Assembly: GCA_048941265.1 (NCBI GenBank) | Contig: JBHLNT010000013.1 | Span: 1 to 51,367, forward strand | Reading direction: 5' to 3' | DNA from: Promethearchaeota archaeon | GTDB lineage: Archaea; Asgardarchaeota; Lokiarchaeia; Sigyniarchaeales; SOKP01 | Length of the DNA stretch: 51,367 nucleotides | In this document: piece by piece, positions 1,206 to 32,400 of the stretch | Position numbering within the stretch: position 1 is the first letter of the stretch | Layout of the letters: every line of letters begins with the position of its first letter | Translations under genes and position numbers: made by a program | The notes under the pieces: generated by a model | Told to the model about the DNA's origin: nothing | Databases searched by the model: none | Seen by the model: the letters and a program-made list of their open reading frames with translations, nothing else

Positions 1206-2051
1206 TTATTTTAATGGATATTTTGGTTTTCTTTTTTCAAAGAAGGCACTTGAAGCTTCATTGACATCTTTGGAAGAAAATGTAATCATAATAGAACTAT
1301 TTTCAAACTGAACAATGTTTTCTAGACTTGGAGAATCTAAAGAAAGATTGATAGCTTCTTTGGTCATTCGTAAACCAAGGGGACTTTTTGTTAATAATTC
1401 TTCTGCCAATTCAAGTCCAGCATTCAATAAATCTGGCTCATCAACAAGTTTTACTGCTAAACCTATATGTTCAGCCTCAACTCCATCAACAATCCTACCA
1501 CTCATTAAGATTTCAGAAGCTCTAGCCCTTCCTATTAATCGGGGAAGAAAATAGCTTCCTCCCATATCTGCACCAGTAAGCCCAATATTGATGGATGCAT
1601 TAATGAATTTGGCATCCTTCGTAACAATCCTTATATCGGACGCCAACGCGAAAGCAAGCCCTCCTCCTGCTGCTGCGCCTTGAATGAGAGCAATAATTGG
1701 TTGTGAGATTTTACGCATCTTAACAATTATCTGGGTAATATGCCATTGGTGATACATTTTTCTTTTTATAGGTTCTTTTACATTTAAAAAATAAAATCTC
1801 TCATATCCTTCAGGAGTTTTTTTAGTGTTTAAAGTTAAGCCTTCTTGAAGATCAGTTCCCGCAGAAAAGGCCCGCCCTTCTCCTCTTAAAATAAGAACCC
1901 TACAATCTAAATTCACCATTAAATGATCTAAAACTTGATGGAAATCTTCTTCTAATTGGAAAGATATTGCGTTCAGTTTTTCGGGTCTATTTAATGTTAA
2001 TATACCTATTCCATCTTCACGTAATTCAAATTTCATGGTTTCTAATTCCAT
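1206..2051 (-). CDS. Enoyl-CoA hydratase/isomerase (crotonase) family protein
   Basis: LTLNRPEKLNA, AFSAGTDL, IIALIQGAAAGGG, LPRLIG and C-terminal FFEKRKPKY motifs. Confidence 0.93.
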   Translation of the reverse strand: MELETMKFELREDGIGILTLNRPEKLNAISFQLEEDFHQVLDHLMVNLDCRVLILRGEGRAFSAGTDLQEGLTLNTKKTPEGYERFYFLNVKEPIKRKMYHQWHITQIIVKMRKISQPIIALIQGAAAGGGLAFALASDIRIVTKDAKFINASINIGLTGADMGGSYFLPRLIGRARASEILMSGRIVDGVEAEHIGLAVKLVDEPDLLNAGLELAEELLTKSPLGLRMTKEAINLSLDSPSLENIVQFENSSIMITFSSKDVNEASSAFFEKRKPKYPLK

Positions 2052-2072
2052 GTCTCATCCCTTCTTTATTAT

Positions 2073-2933
2073 TTATAACTTTGGGTATTTAGGTTTTCTT
2101 TTGTCAAAGAACGCATTTACACCTTCCATAAGATCTGCTGAAGTTGAGCAAAGCATTTGCGATCGATTCTCAATTTGCATCATTGTCTCCAAACTCGGTG
2201 AATCCATAGTTAAATTTATAGCTTCTTTGGTCATACGTAATCCAAGAGGACTCTTAGTTAATAATTCTTCTGCTATTTCCATTGCAGCTTCAAATAACTT
2301 ATTCTCATCACCTTTTACTAGCCTAAAAACTAGGCCAATTTTTTCAGCTTCTTGGGCATCAACAAACCGTCCGGTATATAAAATCTCAGCAGCTCTTGAC
2401 ATGCCAATTAATCGGGGCAGATGATAACTACTAGCTAAGTCGGCGCCAGAAAACCCAATATTAATAAAAGAATTGGCAAATTTTCCATTCTCACCTATTA
2501 TTCTAATATCTGATGCAAGGGCGAATGCAAAACCGGCACCCGTAGCAGGTCCTTGGATAATTGCTATTATAGGTTGGTTTATTTTTCTCATTTTAGGAAT
2601 TAAATGAGATGTTCTCCATTGCCCATACATTTTTGCTTTAATTAAATCTTTATCTGGAGCCCTTATATAAAAAAATTTCTCTTTCAGCTCTGGAGGTTTC
2701 TTTTTGGTTTGAAGAACTGTAGATTCTCGCAAATCCAATCCTGCACAAAAAGCCCTTCCGGCAGCTTTTAGTATGAGAACACGGCAATTTAGATTTACCA
2801 TCAGATAATCAAAAATTTGATGAAGATCTTCTATCATTTGAAAATTCATAGCATTTAATTTATCTGGACGATTAAGAGTTAAAATACCGATACCGTCCTC
2901 CCTCAATTCAAATAAAAGAGTTTCAAATTCCAT
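2073..2933 (-). CDS. Enoyl-CoA hydratase/isomerase (crotonase) family protein
   Basis: LNRPDKLNAM, AFCAGLDL, GPATGAG, LPRLIG; tandem paralog of both neighbours. Confidence 0.93.
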   Translation of the reverse strand: MEFETLLFELREDGIGILTLNRPDKLNAMNFQMIEDLHQIFDYLMVNLNCRVLILKAAGRAFCAGLDLRESTVLQTKKKPPELKEKFFYIRAPDKDLIKAKMYGQWRTSHLIPKMRKINQPIIAIIQGPATGAGFAFALASDIRIIGENGKFANSFINIGFSGADLASSYHLPRLIGMSRAAEILYTGRFVDAQEAEKIGLVFRLVKGDENKLFEAAMEIAEELLTKSPLGLRMTKEAINLTMDSPSLETMMQIENRSQMLCSTSADLMEGVNAFFDKRKPKYPKL

Positions 2934-3028
2934 TTTTTTCCAATTTATACAAGTTATTTGTAAGGATTATATATTATAGTTTTAATTAAAGGTATCAATC
3001 ATTTTAAATGCATTTGTATAAAATATTT

Positions 3029-3880
3029 CTAAAGTTTAGGGTATTTTGGTTTTCTTTTTTCAAAAAAGGCTAACATTCCTTCTAAAACATCACTCGAAGC
3101 ACTAGTTATCATCTGAGCCCGATTTTCTAATTGGATTAAAGTTTCTAAACTGGGTGAATCTTGTGATAAATTAATGGCCTCTTTTGTCATTCTTAAACCA
3201 AGAGGACTTTTTGTTAACAATTCATCTGCAATGTCCATCGCCGCTTCTAATAATTTACTTTGATCCCCCTTCACTACTTTAAAAACAAGACCTATTTTTT
3301 CTGCTTCTTCAGCGTTAATAAATCGGCCGGTGTATAAAATTTCAGTAGCTCTGGATAAGCCTATTAAGCGGGGTAAAAAATAGCTAGTACCTACATCAGA
3401 ACCAGAAAGCCCAAGATTGATAAAAGCATTATTAAATCTTGCCTTTTCTCCTGCTATTCTAATATCAGAAGCTAATGCAAGTGCAAATCCTCCACCCGTA
3501 GCCGGACCGTGGATTATAGCGATTATAGATTGGCTGATTTTTCTCATTTTCACGATGGTGCGGCTTAATCTCGACTGAAAGTATATCCTATTTTTCAATA
3601 CTTCGGGAACGTCCAAATAATAGAATTTTTTGTATTCTTCCGGTTTTCTTTTAGTATTTAATACATTCATTTCCTTCAAATCTAATCCCGCACAAAACGC
3701 CCGTCCTCTGCCTTTTAGGATGACGACCCTACAATTTAAATTTATCATTAAGTTATCAAAAATGTGGTTTAGATCTTCGAACATTTGAAAAGACATCGCA
3801 TTCAAATTTTCTGGTCTGTTGAGAGTAATAATTCCGATTCCATTAGATTTCAATTCAAAATCCAGAGTTTCAAATCTCAT
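3029..3880 (-). CDS. Enoyl-CoA hydratase/isomerase (crotonase) family protein
   Basis: LNRPENLNAM, AFCAGLDL, HGPATGGG, LPRLIG; third tandem paralog. Confidence 0.93.
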   Translation of the reverse strand: MRFETLDFELKSNGIGIITLNRPENLNAMSFQMFEDLNHIFDNLMINLNCRVVILKGRGRAFCAGLDLKEMNVLNTKRKPEEYKKFYYLDVPEVLKNRIYFQSRLSRTIVKMRKISQSIIAIIHGPATGGGFALALASDIRIAGEKARFNNAFINLGLSGSDVGTSYFLPRLIGLSRATEILYTGRFINAEEAEKIGLVFKVVKGDQSKLLEAAMDIADELLTKSPLGLRMTKEAINLSQDSPSLETLIQLENRAQMITSASSDVLEGMLAFFEKRKPKYPKL

Positions 3881-3984
3881 AATTCATAAAATGTCATTTA
3901 AAGGTAATAACTAAGAAAATATAGATTTGAAATAATTTAAGACTATTTAATTGAAATTCATTAAAAATAAGGAAAAAATAAGCT

Positions 3985-5046
3985 TTAATTGATATTATTT
4001 ACCGACACCTCATGGCTATCGAGGCGTTTTGTATCTGGTATTTTTAGTATAAAGTCTTTTCCAAAAGCCAAAGCAGGAGTTAAAGTACCTTTAGGAGATA
4101 ATTTGAAGACTTGTTCAACACTTCTAACACCTGCGACAGCAGTAAATTTATAACCCTCCATTGTCTCAAGCCAAGCTTGAATTTCCTGTCCATTGTTATT
4201 TGATACTTTAGCCCATATATAAGATCTTGCTGTATTTCTTGTAAACTCATCTGGACCGTGTACATTTTTTTCAATCCATTCTCGGACTTTATCTTTCTTT
4301 AATCTTGTAGCTTTCATTAAATCAACTAAGGTTTGTGAATAAGGCATATAAACAATGATATTTGGTATTTTAGTCGTAATATAAGCAGTAATTAAATCTC
4401 CCCAAACTGTAGGGGTGACGGTTCGTATTTTATCAGAGAAGGTGACTTCTCGAGCCCCATTTCCAGGAGTTAATTTTGTGAGTTTTCCATTTTCACGGAT
4501 TAATAATCCTGTAGAAGTATGCTCGAATATTGTTTTAAGCGTTCCAGGACTTATTCCTCCTTCACCAGCAATGGCTAGTTCTAAGTGTGTGGGATTTAAA
4601 ATCTGGTCACTTACATATTTAGCCATACAATCGGTAGGTAAGACATCAAATCCAACTCCAGAAATTATAGATATGCCTTTCTCACGGGCCTCCTCGTCGT
4701 ATTTAAAGTTCTGTTCGAATACAGGGATTTCACCTGTAATATCCAGGTAATTTATTCCTGCTTTTAAACATGCTTGAACCATTGGTTTACTTGTATGGAT
4801 ATAAGGACCTGCAGCATGAAAAACCAAATCAAATTCTGAGATTGTTTTATATAGCTTAATTTTATTTTCTAGATCAAATACTCTATAATCTAAATTCAAT
4901 TCATTCGCTAAAGGAATAAGTTTTTCAGGAGAACGCCCCCCTAATACAGGCCGATGACCACGAGATATAGCTTCTCGAGCAATTAGTTTACCGGTATATC
5001 CATATGCCCCATACAAAATCCATTCCTTTTTCATAATGTCCACCAT
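3985..5046 (-). CDS. Saccharopine dehydrogenase-like NAD(P)-binding oxidoreductase (trans-acting enoyl reductase family)
   Basis: YGAYGYTG Rossmann motif, HAAGPY, YLDITGE, GVGFDVLPTD, TPALAFG. Confidence 0.85.
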   Translation of the reverse strand: MVDIMKKEWILYGAYGYTGKLIAREAISRGHRPVLGGRSPEKLIPLANELNLDYRVFDLENKIKLYKTISEFDLVFHAAGPYIHTSKPMVQACLKAGINYLDITGEIPVFEQNFKYDEEAREKGISIISGVGFDVLPTDCMAKYVSDQILNPTHLELAIAGEGGISPGTLKTIFEHTSTGLLIRENGKLTKLTPGNGAREVTFSDKIRTVTPTVWGDLITAYITTKIPNIIVYMPYSQTLVDLMKATRLKKDKVREWIEKNVHGPDEFTRNTARSYIWAKVSNNNGQEIQAWLETMEGYKFTAVAGVRSVEQVFKLSPKGTLTPALAFGKDFILKIPDTKRLDSHEVSVNNIN

Positions 5047-5338: not shown

Positions 5339-5734
5339 ATGCCAGAAGTAACAAAAGAAATTAAAATTATTCTACTAATCGATGCGATAGCAGCACTGAT
5401 CTTTACATTTCTTTATTTAATAATACCAGAGATATATGCTGGTTTAGTAGATCCACTAGTGTTTGATCCATATTATTGGAGGGCATTTGGAGGGACACTT
5501 TTAGTTCCTGTTATTATGGCTCTGATTGCTTTAAATAGGGCAGAAGTAGAACAGGTAAAATTTATAATTGAATTTGCGATATTGTGGTGCATTGTAATTC
5601 TTGCTTTGAACATATGGGAATTAATAGTACTTCCTCTTTCCCCAACATATACACAAACTACGTGGTTTGATAGCATATTGTTGATAGTATTAATAATTCT
5701 TAACTTCTATTTCTACAATCGAGATTTAAAATAG
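5339..5734 (+). CDS. Hypothetical membrane protein (~4 TM)
   Basis: Four hydrophobic segments; ATG start; sits between AT-rich intergenic regions. Confidence 0.75.
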   Translation: MPEVTKEIKIILLIDAIAALIFTFLYLIIPEIYAGLVDPLVFDPYYWRAFGGTLLVPVIMALIALNRAEVEQVKFIIEFAILWCIVILALNIWELIVLPLSPTYTQTTWFDSILLIVLIILNFYFYNRDLK

Positions 5735-5811: not shown

Positions 5812-8523
5812 TTAGCTTTTAGTATATTTCATTGAACGGCCTCTGTAAAAACTTGATAACATTTCGGCAATAATTCTAATGAGCTCGTCTTGTTGGGTTA
5901 TAGTACATACCATTTCATTTGGATTTTCAGTATAAGGACCATAAAATGCCTCTTCTTGGTCTCTATCTGCTCCAATAGCAGAGACAATCATCTCTGTGAT
6001 AGAACGCAAATCAACATTTCCTTTTTCAACAAGTTTATTTGCCATTTCTTTATCAGTAATCTTACATGCAATTGTTATTTTCTGCATCATTTTAGTTTTT
6101 AATATCGCATTTACAGGTAGTAATGACATGTCAGGAACTACGATTAATAAATGAGCTTTTGTTCTATTTACCATCGCTTCGAGATAGGTCATAATTGTAT
6201 GTTGAGATGTGATTTGCCATGTATTTTCGGCATTCATAAGCTCAATTGATTTTACATCACTCCATATGTTTTCAAAAGTGCTTTTTCCGTTATTGGCAAC
6301 TTCAACAGCTTTATTGACAGGTTCCGATACACCTGCAACGGCATTATCGAACGATTTTAACATTTGATTTGTGAGATTATCAATTTTATTAAGAGTTTCG
6401 CTCCCTATTTTATCAGTGGAACCTTGGAATCCATCATTCATACTGTTGATTTGACTTGGAAGGGTCTCTTTTAATCCATTAACAGAGGATATAAAATTCT
6501 CATCCGCACTACCAATTGTTTCTAAATAAGATTGTATTAATGATTCCAGGTTAGCATTTAAACTAGATTTTGAAGAATTTACTGTATTTCCAAGTTTCTC
6601 ATTAAATGAATTGACTGGTCCCTCGATATTTTTTATAAAACTTGAGAAGTGTTCGCTACTTATTTGAGTCCCTTTTGTTATTGATTCTATTATTTTCCCT
6701 TCTATTTCATCTGATTTTGCCGAAATATCTTTAATTGCGGCTTCAGTATTACTATTTATTTTTTCCTCAAACATGTTTGCTAAATCATTAAAACTAGTGC
6801 TAGCCTTAGAAATAATTTCATTTATTATATCCTTGGAACTTGTTATGTTTTTCTCTAAACTCGCTTTAGTCTCATTGAATGCACCCTCAGTACCTATTTC
6901 GATTTGAGATAAATCGGTATCTAATTGATTAGAATAATTATTCGTATTTTTAACGAGTTCATTCTCTAGACTTTCTAACATAGTTATTTGTTGCGATTTC
7001 ACTTCATCATTAAATTGAGCCGATTTTTCTTTTACTTCATTTCCAATCGATTCTATGTTTGATAAAGATGATCCCTTTAAATTCTCAATAACCTCAGTTA
7101 TATCTCCTGAGAACTCCTTAAATTTTGCATCTACTTCACTCTTAATTACATTCAACTGAGCATTAGTGGCGGCTTCATATTCGTTAAATTTTTCTTTAAT
7201 AAATTCAATTACCGATTGAATTTTCCCTGCGAATTGATCTTTAGTCTCATTAAAAAAGGTTTTTCCGAATTCCAAAAATTTATTTAATTGCTCATCCATT
7301 TTATCGTTAAAATTGTCTTTTTGTTCATTTAAACCCGAATCTAAAGAAGTGATTTGTTCGCCGAAACTATTATTTAAATCTGAAGATGTTTGAATTAGAT
7401 AATCATTAAGAGAATTCTTTTGCTGCTCTAAAGTGCTGTTTAAGGCAGACTTTCCTTGTTCTAACACTTGTGATAATCCATTTTGAAGTTCTGAGAGATT
7501 ATTTACTGTTTTTTCATCCAGTTTTGTGAGCGCTTCGCTTAGTTTATTACGACTTGTAGTAATATTGTTGTCAATATTCATTTTGAAAGTATTTTTCTGC
7601 TCAGTTATGTTCTCCTTAAGAAATTTTGAATTTTCCAAATTTTTCGTTTTTAAATTGCTTAAATTTATATCTAGTTTATCTCCCGTTGTTTTTGACAAAT
7701 TATCAAATTCAGTGTAAGTCTCAGTTTTCCAATTATTTATTTTTTCCAAAGATTGTTCTTGTTGTGATTTATTGTCTGCTATGGATTTATCTCTAGCGGA
7801 ATTCAATGTACCCGCGAATTGTTGTTTTGAGAAGCTTATAACACTTTTTACTTCCTCATCCAAACCTCCAAATTTACTAATAATTGTATTTTTTACTTCA
7901 TTAGCCTGGTTTATTGACTCTTCTTTAAAATTGGCAAAATTACCCTTACTCTCGTTCTCAAACTTTTCCAATTCTGCTCCTATATTTGCTTTTGATGAAT
8001 TGATAAGCTCATCAACTTTCTGTTTACTTTTTTCTGAAGCTCCGTTATAGTCTGAATTAGAACTTTCAATAACTTGAGAGATATTATTATTGGCTTGAAA
8101 AACATCATTAGTAATAGCAGCTTTCTCATCTATAATTATAGTTTCAACATTGGTGCGGATTTCAGAAACTTCCTTTTTAGTCTCATCTTTAAGGGTTTGC
8201 AAAGTTGTGTCAATTTGATTTTTTAAATCACCTATTTCTTTAGAAAAATCATTTAAATGATTTATTAAACCCTCGAAAGGGGGAACTCCTGTGTAAACAT
8301 CAACTAATCCCTTAGCTTTCGGGAGTTTTTGCGCAAGACCTCTTTGAACAAAGTTATCTAAAATTCCCTTGATTGTTTCATAATCGGTCTCTTCATCAAG
8401 CTTAGCATAAATACAGACTTCTCCAGCAGTTAATTTACCTTTAATAAGAAGTAACTCATAGCAAAGTGCCTCAGTCTCGCTTAAACCTAATTTGTCTTGG
8501 GCTATTTTTTTGAACTGTAGCAT
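5812..8523 (-). CDS. TrmB-like wHTH protein with a long central hendecad helical/coiled-coil insert and a C-terminal TrmB/PLD-like domain
   Basis: N-term LGLSETEALCYELLLIKGKLTAGEV...LDNFVQRGLAQK...YTGVPP is TrmB HTH-like. C-term NTWQITSQHTIMTYLEAMVNRTKAHLLIVVP resembles the TrmB effector/PLD-like fold. Start placed at MLQFKK (8523); the ORF track starts at 8568. Confidence 0.75.
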   Translation of the reverse strand: MLQFKKIAQDKLGLSETEALCYELLLIKGKLTAGEVCIYAKLDEETDYETIKGILDNFVQRGLAQKLPKAKGLVDVYTGVPPFEGLINHLNDFSKEIGDLKNQIDTTLQTLKDETKKEVSEIRTNVETIIIDEKAAITNDVFQANNNISQVIESSNSDYNGASEKSKQKVDELINSSKANIGAELEKFENESKGNFANFKEESINQANEVKNTIISKFGGLDEEVKSVISFSKQQFAGTLNSARDKSIADNKSQQEQSLEKINNWKTETYTEFDNLSKTTGDKLDINLSNLKTKNLENSKFLKENITEQKNTFKMNIDNNITTSRNKLSEALTKLDEKTVNNLSELQNGLSQVLEQGKSALNSTLEQQKNSLNDYLIQTSSDLNNSFGEQITSLDSGLNEQKDNFNDKMDEQLNKFLEFGKTFFNETKDQFAGKIQSVIEFIKEKFNEYEAATNAQLNVIKSEVDAKFKEFSGDITEVIENLKGSSLSNIESIGNEVKEKSAQFNDEVKSQQITMLESLENELVKNTNNYSNQLDTDLSQIEIGTEGAFNETKASLEKNITSSKDIINEIISKASTSFNDLANMFEEKINSNTEAAIKDISAKSDEIEGKIIESITKGTQISSEHFSSFIKNIEGPVNSFNEKLGNTVNSSKSSLNANLESLIQSYLETIGSADENFISSVNGLKETLPSQINSMNDGFQGSTDKIGSETLNKIDNLTNQMLKSFDNAVAGVSEPVNKAVEVANNGKSTFENIWSDVKSIELMNAENTWQITSQHTIMTYLEAMVNRTKAHLLIVVPDMSLLPVNAILKTKMMQKITIACKITDKEMANKLVEKGNVDLRSITEMIVSAIGADRDQEEAFYGPYTENPNEMVCTITQQDELIRIIAEMLSSFYRGRSMKYTKS

Positions 8524-8829
8524 AAAGATAATGAGATAATTTATACTTTTTAAGCTGATTAAAAACATAAATATAAAAATATGAACGACTCGAAATTTTT
8601 CAAAAAAATCCTCTTAAGCATAATATATTTATCTTTTTAAAATCTTTATATTTAGTTTCTGACAAATCTGCTTAATATCTATGTATATTATCGAGAAACA
8701 AAATAAATTATAGATCATTTTAAAATTCAAAAATAAAATAAATAATTCTTTTTTTTATCTTTCCATAAATTAATAAAAAAAATCTCATTTTACAAACCAT
8801 AAGAATATTGTTCTATCCTTGCTAACCTT

Positions 8830-10251
8830 ATGACTCAGAAATTATTAGAAGATTCTGATTTCAATCTTTTCAAAAAGATATGGCCTTTCTATATGCTAAC
8901 TGGATTCTTCTCTATGTCATTTAGCGGGATATTCATTTTAATTGTTCCCTTATCCTTTTTATTTTGGCCTGGAGAACCTTTTCATGCATTTGAAATGGGA
9001 CTTCTTATCACATCAATGCTATGGGTAACCTCGGTATCGGGGGTAATATTCGGGAAGTTTATTGATAATCATAATATTAAACGTACGTACATTCTTTTCT
9101 TAGTGGCTCTTGCGAGGGGTTTTAGTTTTATTATGTTAAGTTTTGCGAATGAAGGTAGGGGTATGGAAACATGGTGGTACTTTTTTTTCTTTATTATGAT
9201 TTTTGCATTCTTCGCAGGTGGAAACTATACTAGTGTAATTTCACTTTCTAATGATATTATTCCGAAATCACACCGATCAAGATTTTTTGGAATATATTCA
9301 GTATCAAGACATACTTTTCAGTTAGTTGGTTTTGTAATAGCAGGCTATTTAGTCCAAATTGGATTTTGGAGACTTGTTTTTAGTGTGATGGGATTAGCAA
9401 TTATTATTTCTGGAATAATTATGGTTTATAAAATAAAAGAACCTAAAAGGGGTGCCCAACAGAAAGAATTGTTGGGTGTGCTAAAAAAAGATTCCATAAA
9501 ATACGATTTTCAGATCGACAGGGAAATGATGAAGAAAACAATGTTGAGTAAAACTAATTTGGTTGCTCTAATCGAGGGAATTTTTACAAGCGTTTTTTTA
9601 GGGAGTCTTATAATCATTATACTCCCCTATATCCAAACAGAACCGCATAATTTTTCTCCCTTCGCTACTGGAGTATTCCTGGCTTTTTTTGGTCTTACAG
9701 GAGGATTTATCGGTCAAGTGGTCTTAGCAAGGTTTTCTGATAAAGTATCACAAGAAAATCATACCCGGCGATTATATTTTATTATAATAGCCTTATCATA
9801 TGGCGCTTTTGCTTTCGTCATTATGTTTTTTCTACCATTACCCAATTTAACACCAGAACAGGGAAAAGATCTTGCTTTATTGTTCTCATTTCCGATTATA
9901 TGGTTATTTGGTTGTATTTATTTGAGTTCTAGGGCAATATCTTCATTGTATGAGATAAATCAACCACCAATTTTACAAGATATAAACTTACCTGAGGCAC
10001 AAGGACAAATCACATCTTGGAATCGATTATTAGAAACAATAGCTTTTGGCTCCGGTCCTTTAATCGCAGGAATATTGATTTCAATTACGGGTTATGATTA
10101 TCGATTAGTCGCTATTATTATAGGATTAATAGCCATACCAGGAATATTGTTATGGGTTTTGGCGTTAAGATATTTTGAAGAAGATCATCAATATATTAGT
10201 AACATTCTTTCTGAAAGGGCAAAAATTCTAAACTCGCGAAATGTCAGCTAA
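8830..10251 (+). CDS. MFS transporter
   Basis: ~12 TM segments, GKFID..KR and ARFSDK motif-A-like loops, KEPKRG linker. Confidence 0.88.
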   Translation: MTQKLLEDSDFNLFKKIWPFYMLTGFFSMSFSGIFILIVPLSFLFWPGEPFHAFEMGLLITSMLWVTSVSGVIFGKFIDNHNIKRTYILFLVALARGFSFIMLSFANEGRGMETWWYFFFFIMIFAFFAGGNYTSVISLSNDIIPKSHRSRFFGIYSVSRHTFQLVGFVIAGYLVQIGFWRLVFSVMGLAIIISGIIMVYKIKEPKRGAQQKELLGVLKKDSIKYDFQIDREMMKKTMLSKTNLVALIEGIFTSVFLGSLIIIILPYIQTEPHNFSPFATGVFLAFFGLTGGFIGQVVLARFSDKVSQENHTRRLYFIIIALSYGAFAFVIMFFLPLPNLTPEQGKDLALLFSFPIIWLFGCIYLSSRAISSLYEINQPPILQDINLPEAQGQITSWNRLLETIAFGSGPLIAGILISITGYDYRLVAIIIGLIAIPGILLWVLALRYFEEDHQYISNILSERAKILNSRNVS

Positions 10252-15355: not shown

Positions 15356-15853
15356 TTATAATCTATCCTTTGATTTGCGTATTACTTCGGTAAACCACCC
15401 AAAATCGCCGATTTCCTTATTTTTCTCTAAGCGATTTATTTCGTCTAAATAATCTTTAATCTGTATGCCTAAAATTCTTTTAAATGATTCAAATACTTCT
15501 GTATGATAAGAATTCTTAAGATCTTCTTTATATAATAAATAAAACATATCCAAAGCTTTTTCTGCCTCATCTCTAATATTATCTCTTACATAATCTTTAT
15601 CCATGATTGTGATTAGTATTAAATCATATTTAGAAACAATTATCATTTCTAAATCGAGACCTTTTACAGTAATTTCTTTAATCTTTCCCATATTATCTTT
15701 TCCAAAGAGAGCTAAAGCGCCGATAAATGAAGATAATAGCATAGGATTTATGTTTGAATCTAAAATTAAATCTAATAAGTATTCTCCCGATTCTTTGCAT
15801 ATTACGATTGCTTTCATAAAGTGATAATCTAATTTCTCTTTCTGATCGCTCAT
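15356..15853 (-). CDS. Longin-like domain protein
   Basis: MKAIVICKESGEYLLD, LLSSFIGALALF, IKEITVKGLDLEMII, ALDMFYLLY, FESFKR; close paralog of 14846..15298. Confidence 0.72.
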   Translation of the reverse strand: MSDQKEKLDYHFMKAIVICKESGEYLLDLILDSNINPMLLSSFIGALALFGKDNMGKIKEITVKGLDLEMIIVSKYDLILITIMDKDYVRDNIRDEAEKALDMFYLLYKEDLKNSYHTEVFESFKRILGIQIKDYLDEINRLEKNKEIGDFGWFTEVIRKSKDRL

Positions 15854-23534: not shown

Positions 23535-25214
23535 TTATTCCATTTCTCTCAGTTTCCTTCGAAAGATTTTTCCTACTGCTGTTCGAGGTAATGCTTTTAT
23601 AAACTCTACATGACGCGGATATTTATAACCTGCTAATCGCTCTTTAGCCCATTCTATAATTTCTTTTTCGGTAATCTCTTTATCTCTGTATTCGGGTTTA
23701 AGTACTACCCATGCTTTAATCGTTTCACCGATATTGGGATCTGGAATACCCGCAACGCCTGCTTCTAAAATTGCTGGATGTTCCATTAGTTTTTCCTCAA
23801 CTTCTCTCGGCATTACCTTGTAGCCCTTATACTTTACCATGTCTTTAGTACGTCCCTCAATATAGAAATATCCTTTTTCGTCCATCCTTGCTAAATCTCC
23901 AGTTCTTAACCAACCATTAACAATTGTTTTTTCCGTTACTTCAGGATATTTCCAATATCCTAACATTACCTGAGGTCCGTGGATTAATAATTCACCTACC
24001 TCATTTGGTGGAAGTTCCTCTAAAGTGTCCGGATTAACAATTTTTGCATCCGTATCGAGAATAGGAACACCTATACTCTCTGCAATGATATCCATCCATA
24101 GCACAGCTCCATGTGTGATAGGTGATGTTTCAGTGAGCCCGTATCCTTGACCAACTTTAGTCCCTATCACTTCCTCCCATTTTCTTGCGAGCTCTGGCGC
24201 TAATGCAGCCGATCCAGAGGCAGCTCTCTCAAGGCTGGATAGATCCCGTTCCGTAAAGTCGGGGCAATTTATTAACATTTGAAACATTACAGGCACGCCT
24301 ACAAATAATTCAATTTTATAATATTCAATACCTTCAAGCACTTCTACAGGATCAAAAGAAGCAAACATAACGAGCATCATAGCTGCTCGCATCGCAATAA
24401 TAACCACTGTAAATCCAAAAGTATGGCATAATGGTAATATAGAAAGGTTTACTCCGGTTCCAGCAGTTTCTTCTAATTCATCTATAGGTTCATCAGTATG
24501 ATATATTGTTAAAAGTGAATCTGCTACTAAATTAGTGTGGGAGAGCATAACACCTTTAGGTAAACCTGTGGTACCGCCAGTGAATAATAATGCTGCGATA
24601 TCTTTGTCAGGGTCAATATCCACATCAGGCTGCTTAGGAGCAAAACCGTTTATAAATTCTGTAAGTGTAACAGCATCATCTTTGCCTTCCTCATCTGCAA
24701 TTATAATTACCTCTGGAACTTCAACTTCCTTTCTGGTTTTTTTAATAGTTCGATAGTTAGCCCTTGTAACAAATATTGCCTTTATATTTCCAGATTCTTT
24801 AACAATATGAGTTACGTCCGTCTCTTTGAGTAGCGGATTAATAGGCACCACTGCAGCTCCTGTTTCTAAAATTCCTAAAACACAAAAGAGGAATTCAGGA
24901 CAGTTTCCTGACATAATACCGACGGCATCCCCTTTCCCGACTCCAGAATCATGTAAAGCATGAGCTATTCTGTCAGCATAATGAATTAATTCTCTGTATG
25001 TGTACTTTTTATCAGTAGGTTTATGATATACACAAACGTTATTAGGAAAATTGTTGGCAGATTGCCTTATAAATTCATGAACCGGTATCGGTTCGAATTT
25101 TATTGTTTTGGGTACAGTAGGTGGCCGAGCTTTTAGCCATGGTCTATTGGGATCCACCCACGGGGAGTTATTTTCAAAATCTATAATGGGTTCCCATTCT
25201 GAATAGTCTTTCAT
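23535..25214 (-). CDS. Long-chain fatty acid-CoA ligase (AMP-binding)
   Basis: FTGGTTGLPKG, QGYGLTETSP, WLRTGDL, PREVEE, LPRTAVGK. Confidence 0.93.
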   Translation of the reverse strand: MKDYSEWEPIIDFENNSPWVDPNRPWLKARPPTVPKTIKFEPIPVHEFIRQSANNFPNNVCVYHKPTDKKYTYRELIHYADRIAHALHDSGVGKGDAVGIMSGNCPEFLFCVLGILETGAAVVPINPLLKETDVTHIVKESGNIKAIFVTRANYRTIKKTRKEVEVPEVIIIADEEGKDDAVTLTEFINGFAPKQPDVDIDPDKDIAALLFTGGTTGLPKGVMLSHTNLVADSLLTIYHTDEPIDELEETAGTGVNLSILPLCHTFGFTVVIIAMRAAMMLVMFASFDPVEVLEGIEYYKIELFVGVPVMFQMLINCPDFTERDLSSLERAASGSAALAPELARKWEEVIGTKVGQGYGLTETSPITHGAVLWMDIIAESIGVPILDTDAKIVNPDTLEELPPNEVGELLIHGPQVMLGYWKYPEVTEKTIVNGWLRTGDLARMDEKGYFYIEGRTKDMVKYKGYKVMPREVEEKLMEHPAILEAGVAGIPDPNIGETIKAWVVLKPEYRDKEITEKEIIEWAKERLAGYKYPRHVEFIKALPRTAVGKIFRRKLREME

Positions 25215-25354
25215 TTTTCCTCTATCTTTTTTTTTTTTATTTAAATTTTGATTTATATTAGATCTGATAATTTTTTTTTCTTTTTATTATTTATATAATT
25301 AATTACCAATTTTGTTATTCTCTAAAATATTAAATTTTATAGAATGGTTTAAGT

Positions 25355-26881
25355 GTGAAGCTCAATCAAACTAAAGTGCTCTCGAAAGATGAAATAGAAA
25401 GAATACACTCAGCCACAATTGAATTATTTGAAAACATAGGAATTAAAATCGATTGTGAAGAAACTCGAAAGTTGCTTGAAGATCATGGTGCAGAAGTAGT
25501 TAATAACTCGCAATTTGTTAAATTTCCAGAAGCTTTTGTCAAGGAGCACTTGAAACTAGTTCCTAGTTCCTTTAAATTACATGGACCGGATGGGACATAT
25601 AATTTTGAAGTTACTACTAAAAATTGTTATTTTCTTCCAATTGGCTCTTCTGTAAAGATGTATGATCCTACAGGAAAAAAAGGAGTAAGAAAATCCATTT
25701 TGCAAGACACAATAAATCAAATGCGGATTGTTGACAACTCAGAGCATTTATCAGCCTCACAAATTGATTTTTGGCCGAATGATGTAAAATATACCACAAT
25801 TCATGTTGTATGTCTGTACCATTGGATGAAAAATTTACGCAAACCTTATGGCCACGGAGTTTTTGGTAAAGTTGTTAGCCAAGATTCCATTAACATGGCC
25901 TCAATCATTGCAGGAGGAGAAGAAGAGCTTGTTAAGCGACCGCGATTATTTGGCATTTTTAATCCTACAAGCCCATTGCAATTACCTAAAATAATGACCA
26001 ATGGTCTTAAAGTATTTGCTAACTACAAACAGCCTGTTGTTATCGCACCAGAAGCTTTAGGAGGTACCTCTGCTCCTGTTACCCTAGCTGGACTATTGAC
26101 ACAAACTAATGCTGAAATACTTGCAGGTATAATCCTTGCTCAAATATATAGTCCCAATTCACCAGTTTTTTACGGTTCTGTTTCTCATACCACCGATATG
26201 CGTTCGGGAAATTCAGCTATAGGGGCTATAGAAACAGGTCTAATCACCACTGCTATTGCACAATTATCAAAGTTTTATAATATTCCCTCAAGAGCTGTAG
26301 CAGGAGTTACTGATTCAAAATGTTTTGATATCCAAAATGGATTTGAGCGTTTTCTAACATTAATGTTTGCAGCACAGGCGGGCATCAATTTTATAACATG
26401 TGCCGGGACTTATGAGGCCACCCTAGCTGGAGCGCTTGAATTAACTGCGATTGATAATGAATTGGCTGGTATGATTAAACGAAGTTTCGAAGGAATTGAA
26501 ATAAATGAAAATACAATAGGATTAGATGTCATTAAAAAAGTTGCCACAAGTACTCAGAAAGGAGTAAGCTTCTTAGGAGAAAAACATACCAGAAAATATA
26601 TGAAAACTGAGTTATTTATCCCTAAACTAGTAAACCGAAACCGAAGAACTTCTTGGTTTAAGAAAGGAGCAAAAGATATAATAGCAACCTCGACCGAAAA
26701 AGTTAATGAAATACTTCAAAATTTCAAAGAATATGAAATATCAGCTGAAATAGACGCAAAATTAAAAGAATATATGAAAAAAGTCGACGAAAGAACTATA
26801 GATTATTATATGAAAGAAGAAGGGATATCAGCGACCAGTGTAACTGTTGTGGATGGTGTAGAAATTAAATCTGATGATTAA
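25355..26881 (+). CDS. Trimethylamine methyltransferase (MttB) superfamily, non-pyrrolysine
   Basis: IHSATIELFE.IG, SPLQ, APVTLAG.L.QTNAEILAG, DMRSG, TDSK..D.QNGFE, DNE; no internal TAG. Confidence 0.9.
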   Translation: MKLNQTKVLSKDEIERIHSATIELFENIGIKIDCEETRKLLEDHGAEVVNNSQFVKFPEAFVKEHLKLVPSSFKLHGPDGTYNFEVTTKNCYFLPIGSSVKMYDPTGKKGVRKSILQDTINQMRIVDNSEHLSASQIDFWPNDVKYTTIHVVCLYHWMKNLRKPYGHGVFGKVVSQDSINMASIIAGGEEELVKRPRLFGIFNPTSPLQLPKIMTNGLKVFANYKQPVVIAPEALGGTSAPVTLAGLLTQTNAEILAGIILAQIYSPNSPVFYGSVSHTTDMRSGNSAIGAIETGLITTAIAQLSKFYNIPSRAVAGVTDSKCFDIQNGFERFLTLMFAAQAGINFITCAGTYEATLAGALELTAIDNELAGMIKRSFEGIEINENTIGLDVIKKVATSTQKGVSFLGEKHTRKYMKTELFIPKLVNRNRRTSWFKKGAKDIIATSTEKVNEILQNFKEYEISAEIDAKLKEYMKKVDERTIDYYMKEEGISATSVTVVDGVEIKSDD

Positions 26882-26992
26882 TAAGATTTTTTACCACGAC
26901 AGAAAAAGATTACAAACTAGATATACCTAAAGCGAAAAAGAGTCTTGGAAAATAATTCTTTTTTTTGATTTTATTTCTATTTTATCCAGATT

Positions 26993-27673
26993 TTATAAGA
27001 ATTTAAAAACTTCTTTCAAGAAAGAAATTTTTTGGCCATTCCATTCTTCCTTGTCAAGATAATAAGGATCTTTTTGATGTGGGTCGCGAATCAAAATTGC
27101 ATCCATTCCAACTTCAGAAGCCCCTGTCAATTCATGACTATCTCCATCACCAATGTATAAACAGTTTTGAGGTGTAATATCCAATTTTTCGCAGGCTAAA
27201 TTGTAGATTTTCGGATCTGGTTTTTTCAAACCAACGGAACACGATAATATAGCTACATCTATAAATTTGGCAAATTTAGTATTTTTCCAGAGAATTGGGA
27301 CATCTGCAGAACAATTACTAATAAGGCCTATTTTAAGATCTCTATTCTTTAATTCGGACAATGTCTTTATAGCATCGGATTTAGGCGTTAATCCTTTTCG
27401 AGTGAAATCCAGTTTAAATTGTATTACCTTTTTCAATTGATTTTCATTCACATTGATTTGGAGTGCGTTATGAATATATCTTAAATTCTCTTCCGTAGTC
27501 TTAAAAATCCCAATAGCTCTGTTTTGAGCCGTTTCAATCCAAAGGTCAGAAAATTTCTTAGATGGTAAAGAAAGAACGGAAGCCATTTGAGACAGTAATT
27601 GATTATAATCTTGAAATGTAGGATTGTCAACTAGTGTGCCAAAAAGATCAAAAATAATAGCATCATACTTCAT
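26993..27673 (-). CDS. HAD-superfamily hydrolase
   Basis: FDLFGTL, ISN, KPDPKIY, GDGDSHE. Confidence 0.92.
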   Translation of the reverse strand: MKYDAIIFDLFGTLVDNPTFQDYNQLLSQMASVLSLPSKKFSDLWIETAQNRAIGIFKTTEENLRYIHNALQINVNENQLKKVIQFKLDFTRKGLTPKSDAIKTLSELKNRDLKIGLISNCSADVPILWKNTKFAKFIDVAILSCSVGLKKPDPKIYNLACEKLDITPQNCLYIGDGDSHELTGASEVGMDAILIRDPHQKDPYYLDKEEWNGQKISFLKEVFKFL

Positions 27674-27819
27674 ATTAGGTCTTTTTAATTTGTTCTGTAA
27701 CTATATTTTTCAAACATTTTATCTCTTTCAATTCTCTACAATTATTGAAAATGCACTGAGAAATTAAAACAAATGAGTTAAAATTTAAAGAAAGAGGGAT
27801 AACTTATTCCGTTATTCTT

Positions 27820-29244
27820 TTAATATGTGAATCCTTTTAGTTTCTGTACTGTAGTAAAAATATTTTTCCCGCCTTTTCTCAGAAAATCCATAGCCTCTTC
27901 GATCCCTTCAATGGTTAAATTGAACATTGGAATTAGACTGGAAATGATTTTTCTGGTCCACGGTTGCCACTCATCTCTGATAAGTTCAGGGTTTAGCCAC
28001 ACTATATTATCTTTAAAATGATAGGCAAGCTCTCTGATATAGTGAATTCCAGGCATCTCATTTCGGTGATAATAATAAATTGATCCATACCGTTCGGTAA
28101 GCTCATAGCTGGCCATTGCAGCATCTCCTACCATTACCACCTTATATTTATTATCATATTTCTTTAAGAAATCCTCGAAATCAATAGCTTCATCTGGATT
28201 GCGTTGTGCGTTGAAAAATAACTTTTCATAGACGCAATTATGAAAATAGTACGGTTTAAAATCCTTCCAATGAGACATATTATTCGCGGCCGAAAATAAA
28301 AGGTTGACCAAATGCGCATAAGGCGTCATACTCCCTCCAACATCCATTAGTAATAAGAGTTTCACATCGTTTTTACGCCGTTTATCGAAAATGATATCAA
28401 TATCTCCTCCGTTTTTTGCGGTATGGTCGATGGTTTTATCGATATTTAGTTCATCTCTCTTTCCAATTTCTTCAAGTTTTTTAAGTCGTTTAAGTGCAAC
28501 CTTTATTTGTCTTGTATCCAAGACAATATCCTTACGATAATCCTTAAAAATTCTTTTTTGCGCAATTTGAATTGCCATACGCATTCCCGAAGAACCACCT
28601 ACCCGCATGCCCATCGGGTTTTGCCCCATATTCCCAAATCTGGAATCTCCCTGTGTACCTATCATGTGATGCCCGAAATTATGCTCCTCATCTTGCTTCC
28701 TTAATAATTCTTCAAAATGTTTCTGCATTGCTTCTAAGTCAAATTTCCCATCTATGAGCTGTTGGAAACTTCCGGATAATTCTTCAGGACTCATATTTTT
28801 TTGAAGCCATTGCAATAGTTCATCAGTGATCTGGCTAGGGTCACTTATCAATATCTTCCCATCCAATTTGGCACCTTCTTTTTTCAATAGTTCCTCAAGA
28901 AACTTCTTTAAATCTTCAACTATTATATATTGACCATATTCACTCATCATCATTTGTAAACCCATTGCTAATTCTTCAAGGGTTAATTCTTTATTAAGCC
29001 AATCCCAGATTTCTTGTTTTATATCTTCTGGAAAATTTACCATGGCATCCTTAAAAAAATTAGCGAATGCGATGTCGTAAATATCAAACTGATGTTCACT
29101 CTTACAAAGAATGGATCGAGATATATAATAAAATTCTACCATGTTACGAATTAATCCTTGATTTAAAGCGTCCATTAAAGTCATGTACTCAGTTATACTT
29201 ACGGGAAGTCTTTCTTTAAGGTAATAAAAATATTCTACGAACAT
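27820..29244 (-). CDS. CoxE-like VWA domain protein
   Basis: MIDAS-like DVGGSM, YFHNCVY, VGDAAM, VWLNP; carries an internal duplication. Confidence 0.85.
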   Translation of the reverse strand: MFVEYFYYLKERLPVSITEYMTLMDALNQGLIRNMVEFYYISRSILCKSEHQFDIYDIAFANFFKDAMVNFPEDIKQEIWDWLNKELTLEELAMGLQMMMSEYGQYIIVEDLKKFLEELLKKEGAKLDGKILISDPSQITDELLQWLQKNMSPEELSGSFQQLIDGKFDLEAMQKHFEELLRKQDEEHNFGHHMIGTQGDSRFGNMGQNPMGMRVGGSSGMRMAIQIAQKRIFKDYRKDIVLDTRQIKVALKRLKKLEEIGKRDELNIDKTIDHTAKNGGDIDIIFDKRRKNDVKLLLLMDVGGSMTPYAHLVNLLFSAANNMSHWKDFKPYYFHNCVYEKLFFNAQRNPDEAIDFEDFLKKYDNKYKVVMVGDAAMASYELTERYGSIYYYHRNEMPGIHYIRELAYHFKDNIVWLNPELIRDEWQPWTRKIISSLIPMFNLTIEGIEEAMDFLRKGGKNIFTTVQKLKGFTY

Positions 29245-29353
29245 TATAAGACTAATATTTTTTTTATTAAGAATATTATATTCTTAATTTAATTAAATTT
29301 AGACGAATTAAATAATCTTTTTCTAATTTTTTAAAAAAGAACTTCATTGCTTC

Positions 29354-30592
29354 TTAATAATATGCTAATTTTACTCCTTTAAGCAAATCTACAGAACTGA
29401 AAATATTTTTTCCATTATTTCTTAAAAAATCCATAGCTTGTTCAATACCTTGAATTGTTAAAGGAAAGGTAGGGATAACTTTGGATATAACGAGTCTGGT
29501 CCAGGTCATCCATTCAAAAGAGAAATCTTCTGGATTTAACCAAACTACATTTTTTTTATAATGACGAACAAGTCTTTTTATATAATAAATGCCAGGTTTT
29601 TTATTGCTAGCACCATCATAAATAGCTCCGCGGGGGTCTTTCAATTCACTTCTGTGCATGGTTTGATCTCCTATGATTATTATTCGATATGAACTATCAT
29701 ATTTCCTTAAGAACTCTTCGAAATCCATTGATTCGTCTACATTACGACGAGCATTAAAGTATAATTTATCATAAATACAATTATGAAAATAGAAATACTT
29801 AAAATCTTTCCAGTGGGATAAACTATAAGCTGCGGAGAATAGGAGATTGACCATATGAATGTAGGGATCCATTGTTCCCCCAACATCCATTAAAAGCACA
29901 ATTTTTACGTTGTTTTTTCTTCTTTTTTTGAGGATTAGTTCAATATCTCCACCATTCTTACATGTCTCATCAATAGTTTTATCAAGATCTAATTCGTCCT
30001 TTTTACCAATATCATCTAACTTCTTAAGTCGTTTTAAAGCGACTTTTATTTGACGTGTATCAAGGGTTAAATCTTTTCTGTAATCTTTAAAAATTCTCTT
30101 TTGGGCAATTTTAATAGCGGTATACATACCGTATTCACCTGCAACTCTTATTCCCATAGGATTTTGACCCGAATGCCCGAAAGGGGATGTTCCTTGAGTC
30201 CCAATCCACTTATTTCCGAAATTATGCTCCTTATCTTGTTCTCCTAATAATTTTCTAAATTGCTTCTCTAAATCTTCTGAATTAAAATATTGAGACCATT
30301 GTCCTAGATCAAAAGGAAGATGTAATATTTTCACGTTTTTCTCTAACCATTTCCATAACTCTTCTTTTATTTCGTCAGGAAATTTTAGTCCCGCGTCTTT
30401 AAAAAAATTTACAAAAGCTATATCATATAAGTCAAAATGATGTTCATTTTTACATAAAATTGATCGAGAAATGTAATAAAATTCGACCATATTTCCAATT
30501 AGACCTTGATTTAGCGCTTCCATTAAAGTCATATATTCGGTGATACTAACCGGAAGCCTCTGTTTCAGATAAAAAAAATATTCAACAAACAT
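29354..30592 (-). CDS. CoxE-like VWA domain protein (paralog)
   Basis: DVGGTM, YFHNCIY, IGDQTM, VWLNP; tandem paralog of 27820..29244. Confidence 0.85.
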   Translation of the reverse strand: MFVEYFFYLKQRLPVSITEYMTLMEALNQGLIGNMVEFYYISRSILCKNEHHFDLYDIAFVNFFKDAGLKFPDEIKEELWKWLEKNVKILHLPFDLGQWSQYFNSEDLEKQFRKLLGEQDKEHNFGNKWIGTQGTSPFGHSGQNPMGIRVAGEYGMYTAIKIAQKRIFKDYRKDLTLDTRQIKVALKRLKKLDDIGKKDELDLDKTIDETCKNGGDIELILKKRRKNNVKIVLLMDVGGTMDPYIHMVNLLFSAAYSLSHWKDFKYFYFHNCIYDKLYFNARRNVDESMDFEEFLRKYDSSYRIIIIGDQTMHRSELKDPRGAIYDGASNKKPGIYYIKRLVRHYKKNVVWLNPEDFSFEWMTWTRLVISKVIPTFPLTIQGIEQAMDFLRNNGKNIFSSVDLLKGVKLAYY

Positions 30593-30726
30593 CTAAGATA
30601 ATTAATGAAATTAGTGAGAATTAAATAATTTTTGTCTATGTCAAAAGAAATTAAAAATTTATATATCTTAGGAATAAAGTATATTTTAATTAATATTTAA
30701 AATCCAAAAAAAATAAAATTATTTAA

Positions 30727-32400
30727 TTAATTGCTTTTTTCTTCTTCTTTTTCTCTAAGACTTCGTCTAAGTACTTTTCCTATGGCAGATTTTGGTAAGC
30801 TGCTAACAAACTCCACCATCCTCGGATATTTATAAGCAGCTAAATTTTCTCTAGACCATTCAATAATTTCATTTTCAGTTATTTTTCCAATATAATCATT
30901 TTTAAGTATGATAAATGCTTTAATATCTTCTCCCTTAACAGGATCCTTTACTCCAATTACGCTGCATTCTTGAACTGCGGGGTGTTCATATAAAATTTCC
31001 TCAACTTCTCTAGGATAAACACTGTGACCCTTATATTTTATTAAGTCTTTGACACGATCAAGGATGTAAATATAGCCTTCTTTATCCAATTTAGCAAAAT
31101 CTCCAGTTCTAAGCCATTTATATCCACCTGCCTCAAAAAAGACTTTTTCGTTTTCTTCTGGTCTATTATGATAACCTAACATAACCTGAGGACCTGATAC
31201 TACGAATTCGCCTGCTTCTCCTATAGGTAAAAATTCTAAGTTCTCATTAATTATTCCCACTAAGGTGCTGGCATCCGCATGTCCACAGCTTCCAGGTTTT
31301 TTTCTTGCCCAAGGTGGAGAATTAGTCACACCGGGACTAGTCTCACTAAGACCATATCCTTCACCTATTGCGAATCCTGTTCTTTTCTGCCATGCATTAG
31401 CCATTTCAATAGGCATCGCACTTGCTCCTACATTGACAAACTTTAAACAAGAAAAATCTATATCTTTACCGGCAGGATGACTTAGGAGACCAATGAACAT
31501 TGTTGGTACTCCGAGCATTGTATTTGGTCTTTCATTTTTCATTAATTCATAAATTTTTTCCATATCAAAGGTAGGAAAAATATATCCTTTTGCACCAGTC
31601 ATGGGAGCAAGAGCAAGATCACAAGTTTGTCCATATATATGATACCATGGAAGTACACAAATCGATTTTATGTCTTCTTTAAGATAAGTCGCTTTCATAT
31701 AATCAGAGATTTGTTTAATTTGTAAAATATTTGCTACAATATTATGATGAGATAAACATGCTCCTTTTGGGAGTCCCGTTGTCCCTCCAGTATATTGAAT
31801 TACTGCAATGTCTTGTTTAGGATTAATCTCTGCTTTGGGAATCAGAGTAGGCTCAAGATCCTGTCCCATTAATGTATTAAAATGAACTATTTTATCATTT
31901 TCAGGAACCTCTGGAGTTTTTCCCTCAATATTAACGACTATTACCTTGTCCAAAGGTAACTCATCCTTTACTTTTTCATATTGAGGAAAAAATCTATCAA
32001 GAATGATCAAAAATTTTGCTCCTGAATCTTTTACTTGATAAGCCAGTTCTCTTGCTACAAATAAAGGACTGACTGCTGTTAAGCTCGCCCCATTAAGTAA
32101 TATTGCATAATAACTTATGGAAAACTGCGGGCAATTAGGAAGCCATATAGCTACGATATCCCCTTTTTTTATATTTAACTTTGATAAAGCATTGGCAAAT
32201 CTTATAGTTAGCTGGTTTAATTCTTTATAACTAAATTCCTTTGGACCAAATACCATGCAAATTTTATCTGCATAGTTTTTAATTCCATTTTCAAAGACAT
32301 TAATTAGTGTCATATCTTCAGGGATATCAACTTCTAATGTCATACCGGCTGGTAGATAATCTTTCCAATATCGTTTTTTAATATATTTTGGTAATTTCAT
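30727..32400 (-). CDS. Long-chain fatty acid-CoA ligase
   Basis: QYTGGTTGLPKG, EGYGLSETSP, WLRTGD, LPKSAIGK. Confidence 0.93.
   Translation of the reverse strand: MKLPKYIKKRYWKDYLPAGMTLEVDIPEDMTLINVFENGIKNYADKICMVFGPKEFSYKELNQLTIRFANALSKLNIKKGDIVAIWLPNCPQFSISYYAILLNGASLTAVSPLFVARELAYQVKDSGAKFLIILDRFFPQYEKVKDELPLDKVIVVNIEGKTPEVPENDKIVHFNTLMGQDLEPTLIPKAEINPKQDIAVIQYTGGTTGLPKGACLSHHNIVANILQIKQISDYMKATYLKEDIKSICVLPWYHIYGQTCDLALAPMTGAKGYIFPTFDMEKIYELMKNERPNTMLGVPTMFIGLLSHPAGKDIDFSCLKFVNVGASAMPIEMANAWQKRTGFAIGEGYGLSETSPGVTNSPPWARKKPGSCGHADASTLVGIINENLEFLPIGEAGEFVVSGPQVMLGYHNRPEENEKVFFEAGGYKWLRTGDFAKLDKEGYIYILDRVKDLIKYKGHSVYPREVEEILYEHPAVQECSVIGVKDPVKGEDIKAFIILKNDYIGKITENEIIEWSRENLAAYKYPRMVEFVSSLPKSAIGKVLRRSLREKEEEKSN

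Follow-up and report, generated by a model that had tools for sequence, protein, structure and literature searches.

What would an Asgard archaeon do with a protein that carries the end domains of a TrmB-family regulator and, between them, several hundred residues of uninterrupted helix? The question is raised by a gene on the minus strand of a 51,367-nucleotide stretch of DNA, hereafter the window, which covers positions 1 to 51,367 of contig JBHLNT010000013.1 in an assembly of a Promethearchaeota archaeon (GCA_048941265.1). The open reading frame extends over 5812–8568 (918 amino acids), and its in-frame upstream ATG at 8568 would add 15 residues; this start is not backed by homologues, whereas the ATG at 8523 is, their N-termini reading MEQFKK or MEKFKK. 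Because the homologues begin at this second in-frame ATG, the gene is taken as 5812–8523 (minus strand), encoding 903 amino acids followed by a stop codon (5812–5814), and its product is referred to here as P0001.

The answer that we favor, and that taken as a whole we regard as evenly balanced between right and wrong, is that P0001 carries a TrmBL2-type head on an expanded rod, that the two halves of this rod run antiparallel, and that the protein has a DNA-anchored structural role. The short amphipathic helix through which TrmB-family proteins pair would have been expanded to about 660 residues of unbroken hendecad helix. In what follows, the domains at the two ends, the rod between them and the protein family are described before the topology and the possible role of the rod are weighed.

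The Terminal Domains

Residues 1–82 (8278–8523, minus strand) form a TrmB-type winged helix-turn-helix, a putative DNA-binding domain that is recognized both by Pfam and by a profile of the family. PF01978 (TrmB) matches residues 11–69 with 27.6 bits against a cut-off of 25.6 when the full protein is scanned, and with 31.5 bits when the isolated N-terminus (residues 1–95) is used. The N-terminal sequence of P0001 alone found no match in the PDB and the family profile (A6) was needed, which reached TrmB (3qph) at E 6.4e-12 and TrmBL2 (5bpd) at E 2.4e-9, with an alignment that runs on into the start of the pairing helix of both proteins. A winged helix of TrmB type had been proposed in the original prediction, and the above cut-off Pfam match together with the profile matches bears this out. 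DNA binding by this domain is what we infer from the likeness of the head to that of TrmB and TrmBL2.

At the other end, residues 746–903 (5815–6288, minus strand) comprise the last part of the rod helix, followed by a PLD-fold domain of TrmB/TrmBL2 type that is non-catalytic and whose folded part, residues 767–902, aligns to TrmB. Sequence comparison only hints at this relationship: PF11495 (Regulator_TrmB) remains sub-threshold on the C-terminal 172 residues (E 0.0025, 17.5 bits against 22.2, profile positions 3–133 of 233), and the sequence profile of the C-domain (A4) matched nothing in the PDB below E 0.1, while a short member of the family, P0052, reaches the PF11495 cut-off with 22.7 bits. 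The assignment comes from modeled structure. An AF2 model built from a 79-sequence alignment has a pLDDT of 93.3, and it supersedes an earlier model from 5 sequences (pLDDT 62, best Foldseek E 0.015). The first seven Foldseek matches of the newer model are all TrmBL2 chains (E 8e-10 to 3e-8), followed by TrmB 2f5t (E 5e-8) and then by PLD-fold proteins. VIA-align superposes it on TrmB 2f5t with Z 16.3 and a root-mean-square deviation of 2.2 Å over 130 residues, corresponding to TrmB residues 110–243, on 3qph with Z 15.5, and on TrmBL2 with Z 14.5 (TrmBL2 residues 123–264). Independently, the ESM Atlas model of P0001 matches PF11495 clusters at TM-scores of 0.71–0.75.

The structural match halts at TrmB residue 243, where P0001 itself ends, and the sugar-binding subdomain of TrmB is absent; the C-domain thus ends where TrmBL2 ends. 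Three residues, K789, E857 and E858, are nearly invariant in the C-domain across the family. The HKD motif (H.K....D) of PLD enzymes was sought in P0001 and in 51 family members with both end domains and found in none, the conserved K789 being preceded by R-T and not by H-x, and the identification of P0001 as a catalytic PLD was rejected on this ground. Since both the sugar-binding subdomain and the catalytic motif are absent, the head as modeled is of TrmBL2 type. The C-terminal TrmB/PLD-like domain that had been predicted therefore holds as regards its fold, which matches TrmB and TrmBL2 structures, and has to be narrowed to the part equivalent to TrmB residues 110–243.

The closest known system is thus TrmBL2 (PF0496/TK0471; 5bpd, 5bpi, 5bqt, 5box), a chromatin protein and global repressor of Thermococcales. 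Both proteins have, in the same order, a winged helix, an amphipathic pairing helix and a PLD-fold C-domain without sugar-binding subdomain, but TrmBL2 has 264 amino acids and a helix of a few tens of residues where P0001 has a hendecad helix of about 660, and their C-domains are only 12–15% identical. Two reports describe TrmBL2 as binding DNA non-specifically and forming tetramers and stiff DNA filaments (PMC4877046) and as stalling SMC complexes (PMC11840125). TrmB itself (Pyrococcus/Thermococcus; 3qph, 2f5t), a sugar-sensing regulator, gives the best structure match among individual alignments of the C-domain and the best match of the N-terminal profile. According to a review, its further C-terminal subdomain holds the sugar-binding residues G320 and E326 (PMC4158304), and P0001 ends before this subdomain. 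The helix of TrmB has about 35 residues, and that of P0001 is about 20 times longer. Because the N-terminal profile enters the pairing helix of these proteins and the C-domain matches start after it, the rod sits inside the dimerization helix of the family.

The Hendecad Rod

Residues 83–745 (6289–8277, minus strand) constitute an unbroken amphipathic helix of 11/3 periodicity with about 60 repeats, acidic and nearly free of proline, as judged from Fourier analysis, helix phase and a PF01442 match that is taken up below. The amphipathic hendecad signal begins at residue 83, directly after the winged helix. Over residues 96–745 the Fourier spectrum of hydropathy has a single peak at period 3.67 with a power of 654, compared to 107 for the highest of 200 shuffles, and the power at the heptad period of 3.5 is 11.7. 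This agrees with the original prediction of some 650 residues of hendecad and not heptad repeats, and the middle is indeed nearly free of proline, with 3 in residues 96–745. In sliding windows of 44 residues the 11/3 phase drifts merely from −52 to −149 degrees over residues 83–740 and collapses at the start of the C-domain. A drift as small as this means that about 60 hendecads follow one another in a single register, without a stutter. By BLOSUM score, self-similarity is highest at lags of 11, 22, 92, 44, 55 and 33, lag 11 exceeding lag 22. Hydrophobic residues occupy hendecad positions a, d, e and h, and on the polar face acidic residues lie at the center and lysines towards the edges. The net charge of the rod (residues 86–751) is −38, and the family mean is −0.047 per residue.

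Other identities for a protein of this length were considered and rejected. A motif scan of P0001 finds no Walker A motif, and no ATPase family is matched in Pfam or NCBIfam, which removes an SMC-like ATPase; the NCBIfam scan gave only far sub-threshold matches, e.g., ZorA with 20 bits against a cut-off of 190. A membrane protein is removed by the lack of a transmembrane segment, the highest hydropathy over 19 residues (1.68) being that of a strand inside the folded C-domain. The lack of Walker motifs and of transmembrane segments had both been stated from the start. Likewise, a signal peptide or hydrophobic N-terminal segment was looked for in P0001 and none was found. A precomputed Pfam list assigns PF28217.1 to P0001, and a curated domain entry may exist.

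Distribution and Length of the Family

An exhaustive search over cluster representatives at 50% identity yielded a family of 157 representatives at E ≤ 0.001, 47 of them at E ≤ 1e-10; a word-indexed search had recovered only four relatives. At E ≤ 1e-5 the family is matched in 175 of the 301 genomes that were sampled from the phylum, and these represent 55 of 70 sampled genera. The sample contains few close orthologues of P0001 itself, and the source genome holds one copy. The named relatives come from metagenome-assembled genomes of Promethearchaeia/Promethearchaeota and from the closed genome of Ca. Harpocratesius repetitus (locus L018), so that the source genome belongs to the Loki-type Asgard archaea. 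The ESM Atlas clusters of the long forms (652–872 amino acids) all fall under Promethearchaeota, an assignment whose taxa rest on few records.

Protein lengths range from 83 to 2,863 amino acids among the 153 family proteins examined, and rod lengths from 87 to 1,533 residues in the 51 members for which domain boundaries were defined by hidden Markov models (HMMs). Forms with short rods (P0050, P0052 and P0112) bridge to ordinary TrmB proteins. A period of 3.64–3.69 is the top peak in 95 of the 109 family proteins of at least 500 amino acids. On the other hand, P0001 shows no insertion or deletion of at least 3 residues against P0003 (44% identity) or against the 903-residue orthologues at the related loci L014 and L015: rod length is fixed among orthologues and graded between paralogues. 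Eight further entries of 106–174 amino acids (P0010, P0013, P0027, P0039, P0065, P0086, P0116 and P0124) consist of the family's PLD-fold C-domain alone and may be free-standing genes or fragments cut off at contig ends.

In the literature on TrmB-family, hendecad and apolipoprotein-like archaeal proteins we found no description of a TrmB protein with a long rod, in line with the earlier claim that the architecture is uncharacterized. A 'TrmBL' class is tallied in Asgard chromatin proteomes in a 2026 preprint (10.64898/2026.07.02.735847), which may include long-rod members and so bear on novelty.

Topology of the Rod

The rod limits defined by HMM in P0001 are 85 and 752 (rod 86–751), with a midpoint at residue 418, and were set independently of any tip. 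This midpoint falls between KFLE and FGKTFF, in an aromatic stretch with a glycine. Residues 416–424 (FLEFGKTFF; 7252–7278, minus strand) would be a hairpin tip or a two-fold axis, between a proposed first arm (residues 83–418; 7270–8277, minus strand) and a proposed second arm (residues 421–745; 6289–7263, minus strand) of an antiparallel pair, both delimited from the HMM rod boundaries and the mirrored charge of the family. The EFGK motif is conserved in P0001, in P0003 and in the second of the two duplicated tip copies of P0002.

The main evidence for such pairing is a mirrored-charge scan: for each of 601 offsets of a trial center, in half-residue units, the charges at positions equidistant from it on either side were multiplied, and the products averaged over 44 full-length members. 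Offsets +1, −2 and −5 give the lowest family means, and after smoothing the minimum lies exactly at offset 0 with z −5.8, the next minimum having z −2.7. None of 300 hendecad-block shuffles reaches the observed value (z −8.1), the signal remains after detrending (z −4.8) and without P0001–P0005, and it spans the rod from tip to arm ends. Furthermore, 9 of the 44 members whose rods have at least 400 residues carry a proline no more than 12 residues from the midpoint, compared to 3.5 expected (simulated p 0.006). Since the midpoint is both the center of the mirrored charge in the family and a site of proline clustering, the evidence favors an in-register, antiparallel arrangement of the rod halves, which most likely pair about the exact midpoint; this conclusion is drawn from a sequence statistic of the family that is weak for P0001 alone. 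The two halves would then pair about residues 416–424 in the same way as the short TrmB helix pairs between subunits.

The main alternative is a straight, parallel and in-register homodimer or tetramer that extends over about 100 nm; its winged helices would be gathered at one end and its PLD-fold domains at the opposite end, and the rod would tether DNA to whichever partner the C-domain binds. The right-handed hendecad coiled coils that are known, tetrabrachion among them, run parallel. P0001 shares the 11/3 period and the a-d-e-h core with the tetrabrachion stalk and with the E-G peripheral stalk of A/V-type ATPases, both parallel, but these stalks come from unrelated families and are not known to carry a DNA-binding head. 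A parallel rod would also account for a hendecad phase that continues from end to end of the rod and past the midpoint without a break, and for the 35 of 44 members without proline within 12 residues of it. However, mirrored charge in the family is centered exactly on the midpoint, and a parallel half-shift control, which compares arm 1 with arm 2 in parallel and not chain with chain in register, is silent (z −0.65); prolines are enriched at the midpoint; and the homologous TrmB helices, according to a review, pair antiparallel between subunits, through Phe81/Ile91′ and Phe84/Leu88′ (PMC4158304), the geometry proposed here for the rod. We therefore consider a parallel rod improbable.

Antiparallel pairing could be realized in two ways. 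In a chain that doubles back, the two end domains, winged helix and PLD fold, would meet to form a head like that of TrmBL2, carried on a stiff and acidic stalk about 50 nm long, as calculated for arms of about 335 residues at 0.15 nm each. If instead two chains pair head to tail, the result would be a rod about 100 nm long that bears a composite head at either end. The fold-back form would resemble the arms of SMC and Rad50, in which a long antiparallel intramolecular coiled coil joins both ends in one DNA-binding head. The likeness is one of geometry only: P0001 has no ATPase head, hinge or zinc hook, its repeats are hendecads and not heptads, and there is no sequence relationship.

A number of observations weigh against this favored arrangement of head and rod. 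Taken alone, P0001 has weak mirrored charge (z −1.9, reached by 31 of 1000 shuffles), and the signal is absent in P0003 and P0004 singly. As the family members are related, the statistics overstate their independence. The mirror correlation of local hendecad strength has no peak at the midpoint (family mean −0.017 at offset 0, with the maximum elsewhere), a glycine as near to the midpoint is expected by chance about 1 time in 5, and the helix phase passes straight through it. Mirrored compensating insertions and deletions were dropped as an argument, those of 33 residues that MAFFT gave at roughly mirrored places in P0004 and P0005 being placed differently by pairwise alignments. Sequence does not separate the fold-back monomer from the head-to-tail dimer. 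At the DNA-binding end, the presumed recognition helix opens with acidic residues (D43-E44-E45-T46-D47), and in the profile alignment, which is imprecise, the DNA-recognition residues Tyr50/Asp51 of TrmB face acidic consensus positions and not a Tyr/acid pair; Y48-E49 are nearby in P0001, behind the acidic stretch D43–D47. Prediction of a complex between residues 240–418 and 421–600 gave 0.09, 0.31 and 0.33 against a mark of 0.32, with controls at 0.00, and yields no verdict either way.

Two side observations concern the same part of the rod. P0002 (1021 amino acids, on a 4-kb contig) has a 105-residue insertion relative to P0001 at about residues 388–492 that repeats the tip region (KFFEFEKNYFTE... 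resembling KFLEFGKTFFNE...), either a tandem duplication at the rod midpoint or possibly an assembly artefact. In the class of rods of 650–675 residues (P0033, P0058, P0061, P0096, P0117, P0087 and others), prolines also gather about 200 residues ahead of the midpoint, and some members have a proline at a like distance past it (P0121 at −184/+201, P0025 at −233/+258), which may mark a mirrored elbow.

Gene Neighborhood and Possible Roles

On the favored explanation, the protein would act as a DNA-anchored structural rod, that is, a nucleoid spacer, tether or bridge, and not as a sugar-sensing switch or a lipid sensor. Both the oligomeric state and this cellular role are what we infer. The original prediction had offered two possibilities, a long rod that tethers or organizes DNA and a factor that senses membranes or lipids; the former stays the best general reading, with DNA binding suggested by the likeness of the head.

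The surroundings of the gene bear on the competing roles. Downstream of it in the window lie three enoyl-CoA hydratases, a saccharopine-dehydrogenase-like gene and a gene for a 131-residue membrane protein, and a divergent MFS gene (8830–10251) lies 260 bp upstream. This neighborhood is kept only in L014 and L015 (78–81% identity) and is gone in L016–L019, where the neighbors include an ABC transporter, GNAT acetyltransferases, a sugar kinase and a hydroxyacyl-CoA dehydrogenase. Because the arrangement is lost in L016–L019, the lipid-gene context is not a conserved association.

P0001 might be an ordinary local regulator of the TrmB family that controls the divergent MFS gene or the downstream CoA-ester genes, with the rod as a mere long dimerization element. 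According to a review, proteins of this family typically control adjacent transporter genes (PMC4158304), and the divergent arrangement with the MFS gene is kept in L015. However, P0001 has no effector-binding subdomain, the MFS neighbor is absent beside the homologues in L016–L019, and the phylum-wide conservation of rod length and periodicity implies selection on the rod itself, all of which makes local regulation a decidedly improbable account.

The remaining possibility is an amphipathic rod that binds lipids or membranes, as apolipoproteins, perilipins and synuclein do, and couples lipid state to a TrmB-type head. PF01442 (Apolipoprotein A1/A4/E) does match the middle of P0001 in 4 stretches with 97.7 bits against a cut-off of 90, and the best sequence match of P0001 in the PDB is apolipoprotein A-IV (3s84, E 5e-4). 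P0001 and apolipoproteins A-I, A-IV and E have in common tandem 11-residue amphipathic helical repeats, and the PF01442 match reflects this pattern and not demonstrated common descent. Apolipoproteins are secreted animal lipid-binding proteins with 22-residue repeats punctuated by proline, whereas P0001 is cytoplasmic, nearly proline-free, in one unbroken register and flanked by TrmB domains. Antiparallel pairing with salt bridges is also found in apolipoprotein double belts, the polar face of the rod with its acidic center and lysine edges would suit a lipid-binding helix, and the window holds three acyl-CoA-synthetase-like genes besides the three enoyl-CoA hydratases. Nevertheless, with a neighborhood conserved at genus level only, a strongly acidic rod, mirrored charge that points to helix–helix pairing, no proline-punctuated 22-residue repeats, a PF01442 cut-off reached by only 6 of 30 family proteins scanned, neither signal peptide nor membrane segment, and a strict conservation of length that fits a ruler-like rod and not a lipid coat, we regard the lipid-sensing proposal as unsupported and highly improbable. 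In the same Pfam scan, PF01978 was found in 21 of the 30 proteins and PF01442 at E ≤ 0.001 in 27.

Several features of the neighborhood are recorded here in their own right. The block at 1206–5046 (minus strand) consists of three tandem enoyl-CoA hydratase/isomerase paralogues (281, 286 and 283 amino acids) followed by a saccharopine-dehydrogenase-like NAD(P)-binding protein, and its conservation extends to L014 and L015. The gene for the 131-residue protein, which is multi-pass and without Pfam family, lies at 5339–5734 (plus strand), convergent with the rod gene; in L015 (7351–7758 and 10798–11193) and L014 (166–561 and 3625–4020) a second, diverged copy of the 131-residue type (36–38% identity) is present on the other side of the rod gene. 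A 165-residue protein without Pfam family is encoded 7 kb from the rod gene at 15356–15853 (minus strand), and its homologues adjoin the rod gene in three more distant relatives, at L016 (5550–6056), L017 (6850–7695) and L018 (6750–7670 and 10890–11387); in L018 it is joined to a preceding glutaredoxin-like N-terminus. A weak conserved linkage is possible.

Further away, the region at 23535–34310 contains three AMP-binding (acyl-CoA-synthetase-like) paralogues, two VWA/CoxE-like proteins and a HAD hydrolase, as well as a MttB-family methyltransferase at 25355–26881. At 34420–37322 a GH32 glycoside hydrolase of fructan or sucrose type stands divergent to an MFS transporter, possibly forming a fructan or sucrose uptake pair in this Asgard archaeon.

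Implications

Few archaeal chromatin proteins are known structurally, TrmBL2 being one of them, and rods that are fixed in orthologues, graded in paralogues and strictly hendecad suggest an unstudied family of distance-setting architectural DNA proteins in the lineage nearest to eukaryotes. The family is also an unusually clean natural case of a very long hendecad coiled coil, useful for structural work on coiled coils. A bolder generalization, which we place on the unlikely side, is that these proteins serve throughout the Asgard phylum as length-graded, DNA-anchored rulers, with TrmBL2-type heads on antiparallel hendecad stalks of about 15 to more than 100 nm when folded back, setting fixed distances in the nucleoid. 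Members in relatives with closed genomes make this idea directly testable. If it is true, such rulers might bridge DNA segments, keep chromatin at a distance from the membrane or the cytoskeleton, or serve as roadblocks or partners of SMC complexes, and the closest archaeal relatives of eukaryotes would possess a prokaryotic equivalent of the coiled-coil tethers of eukaryotes.

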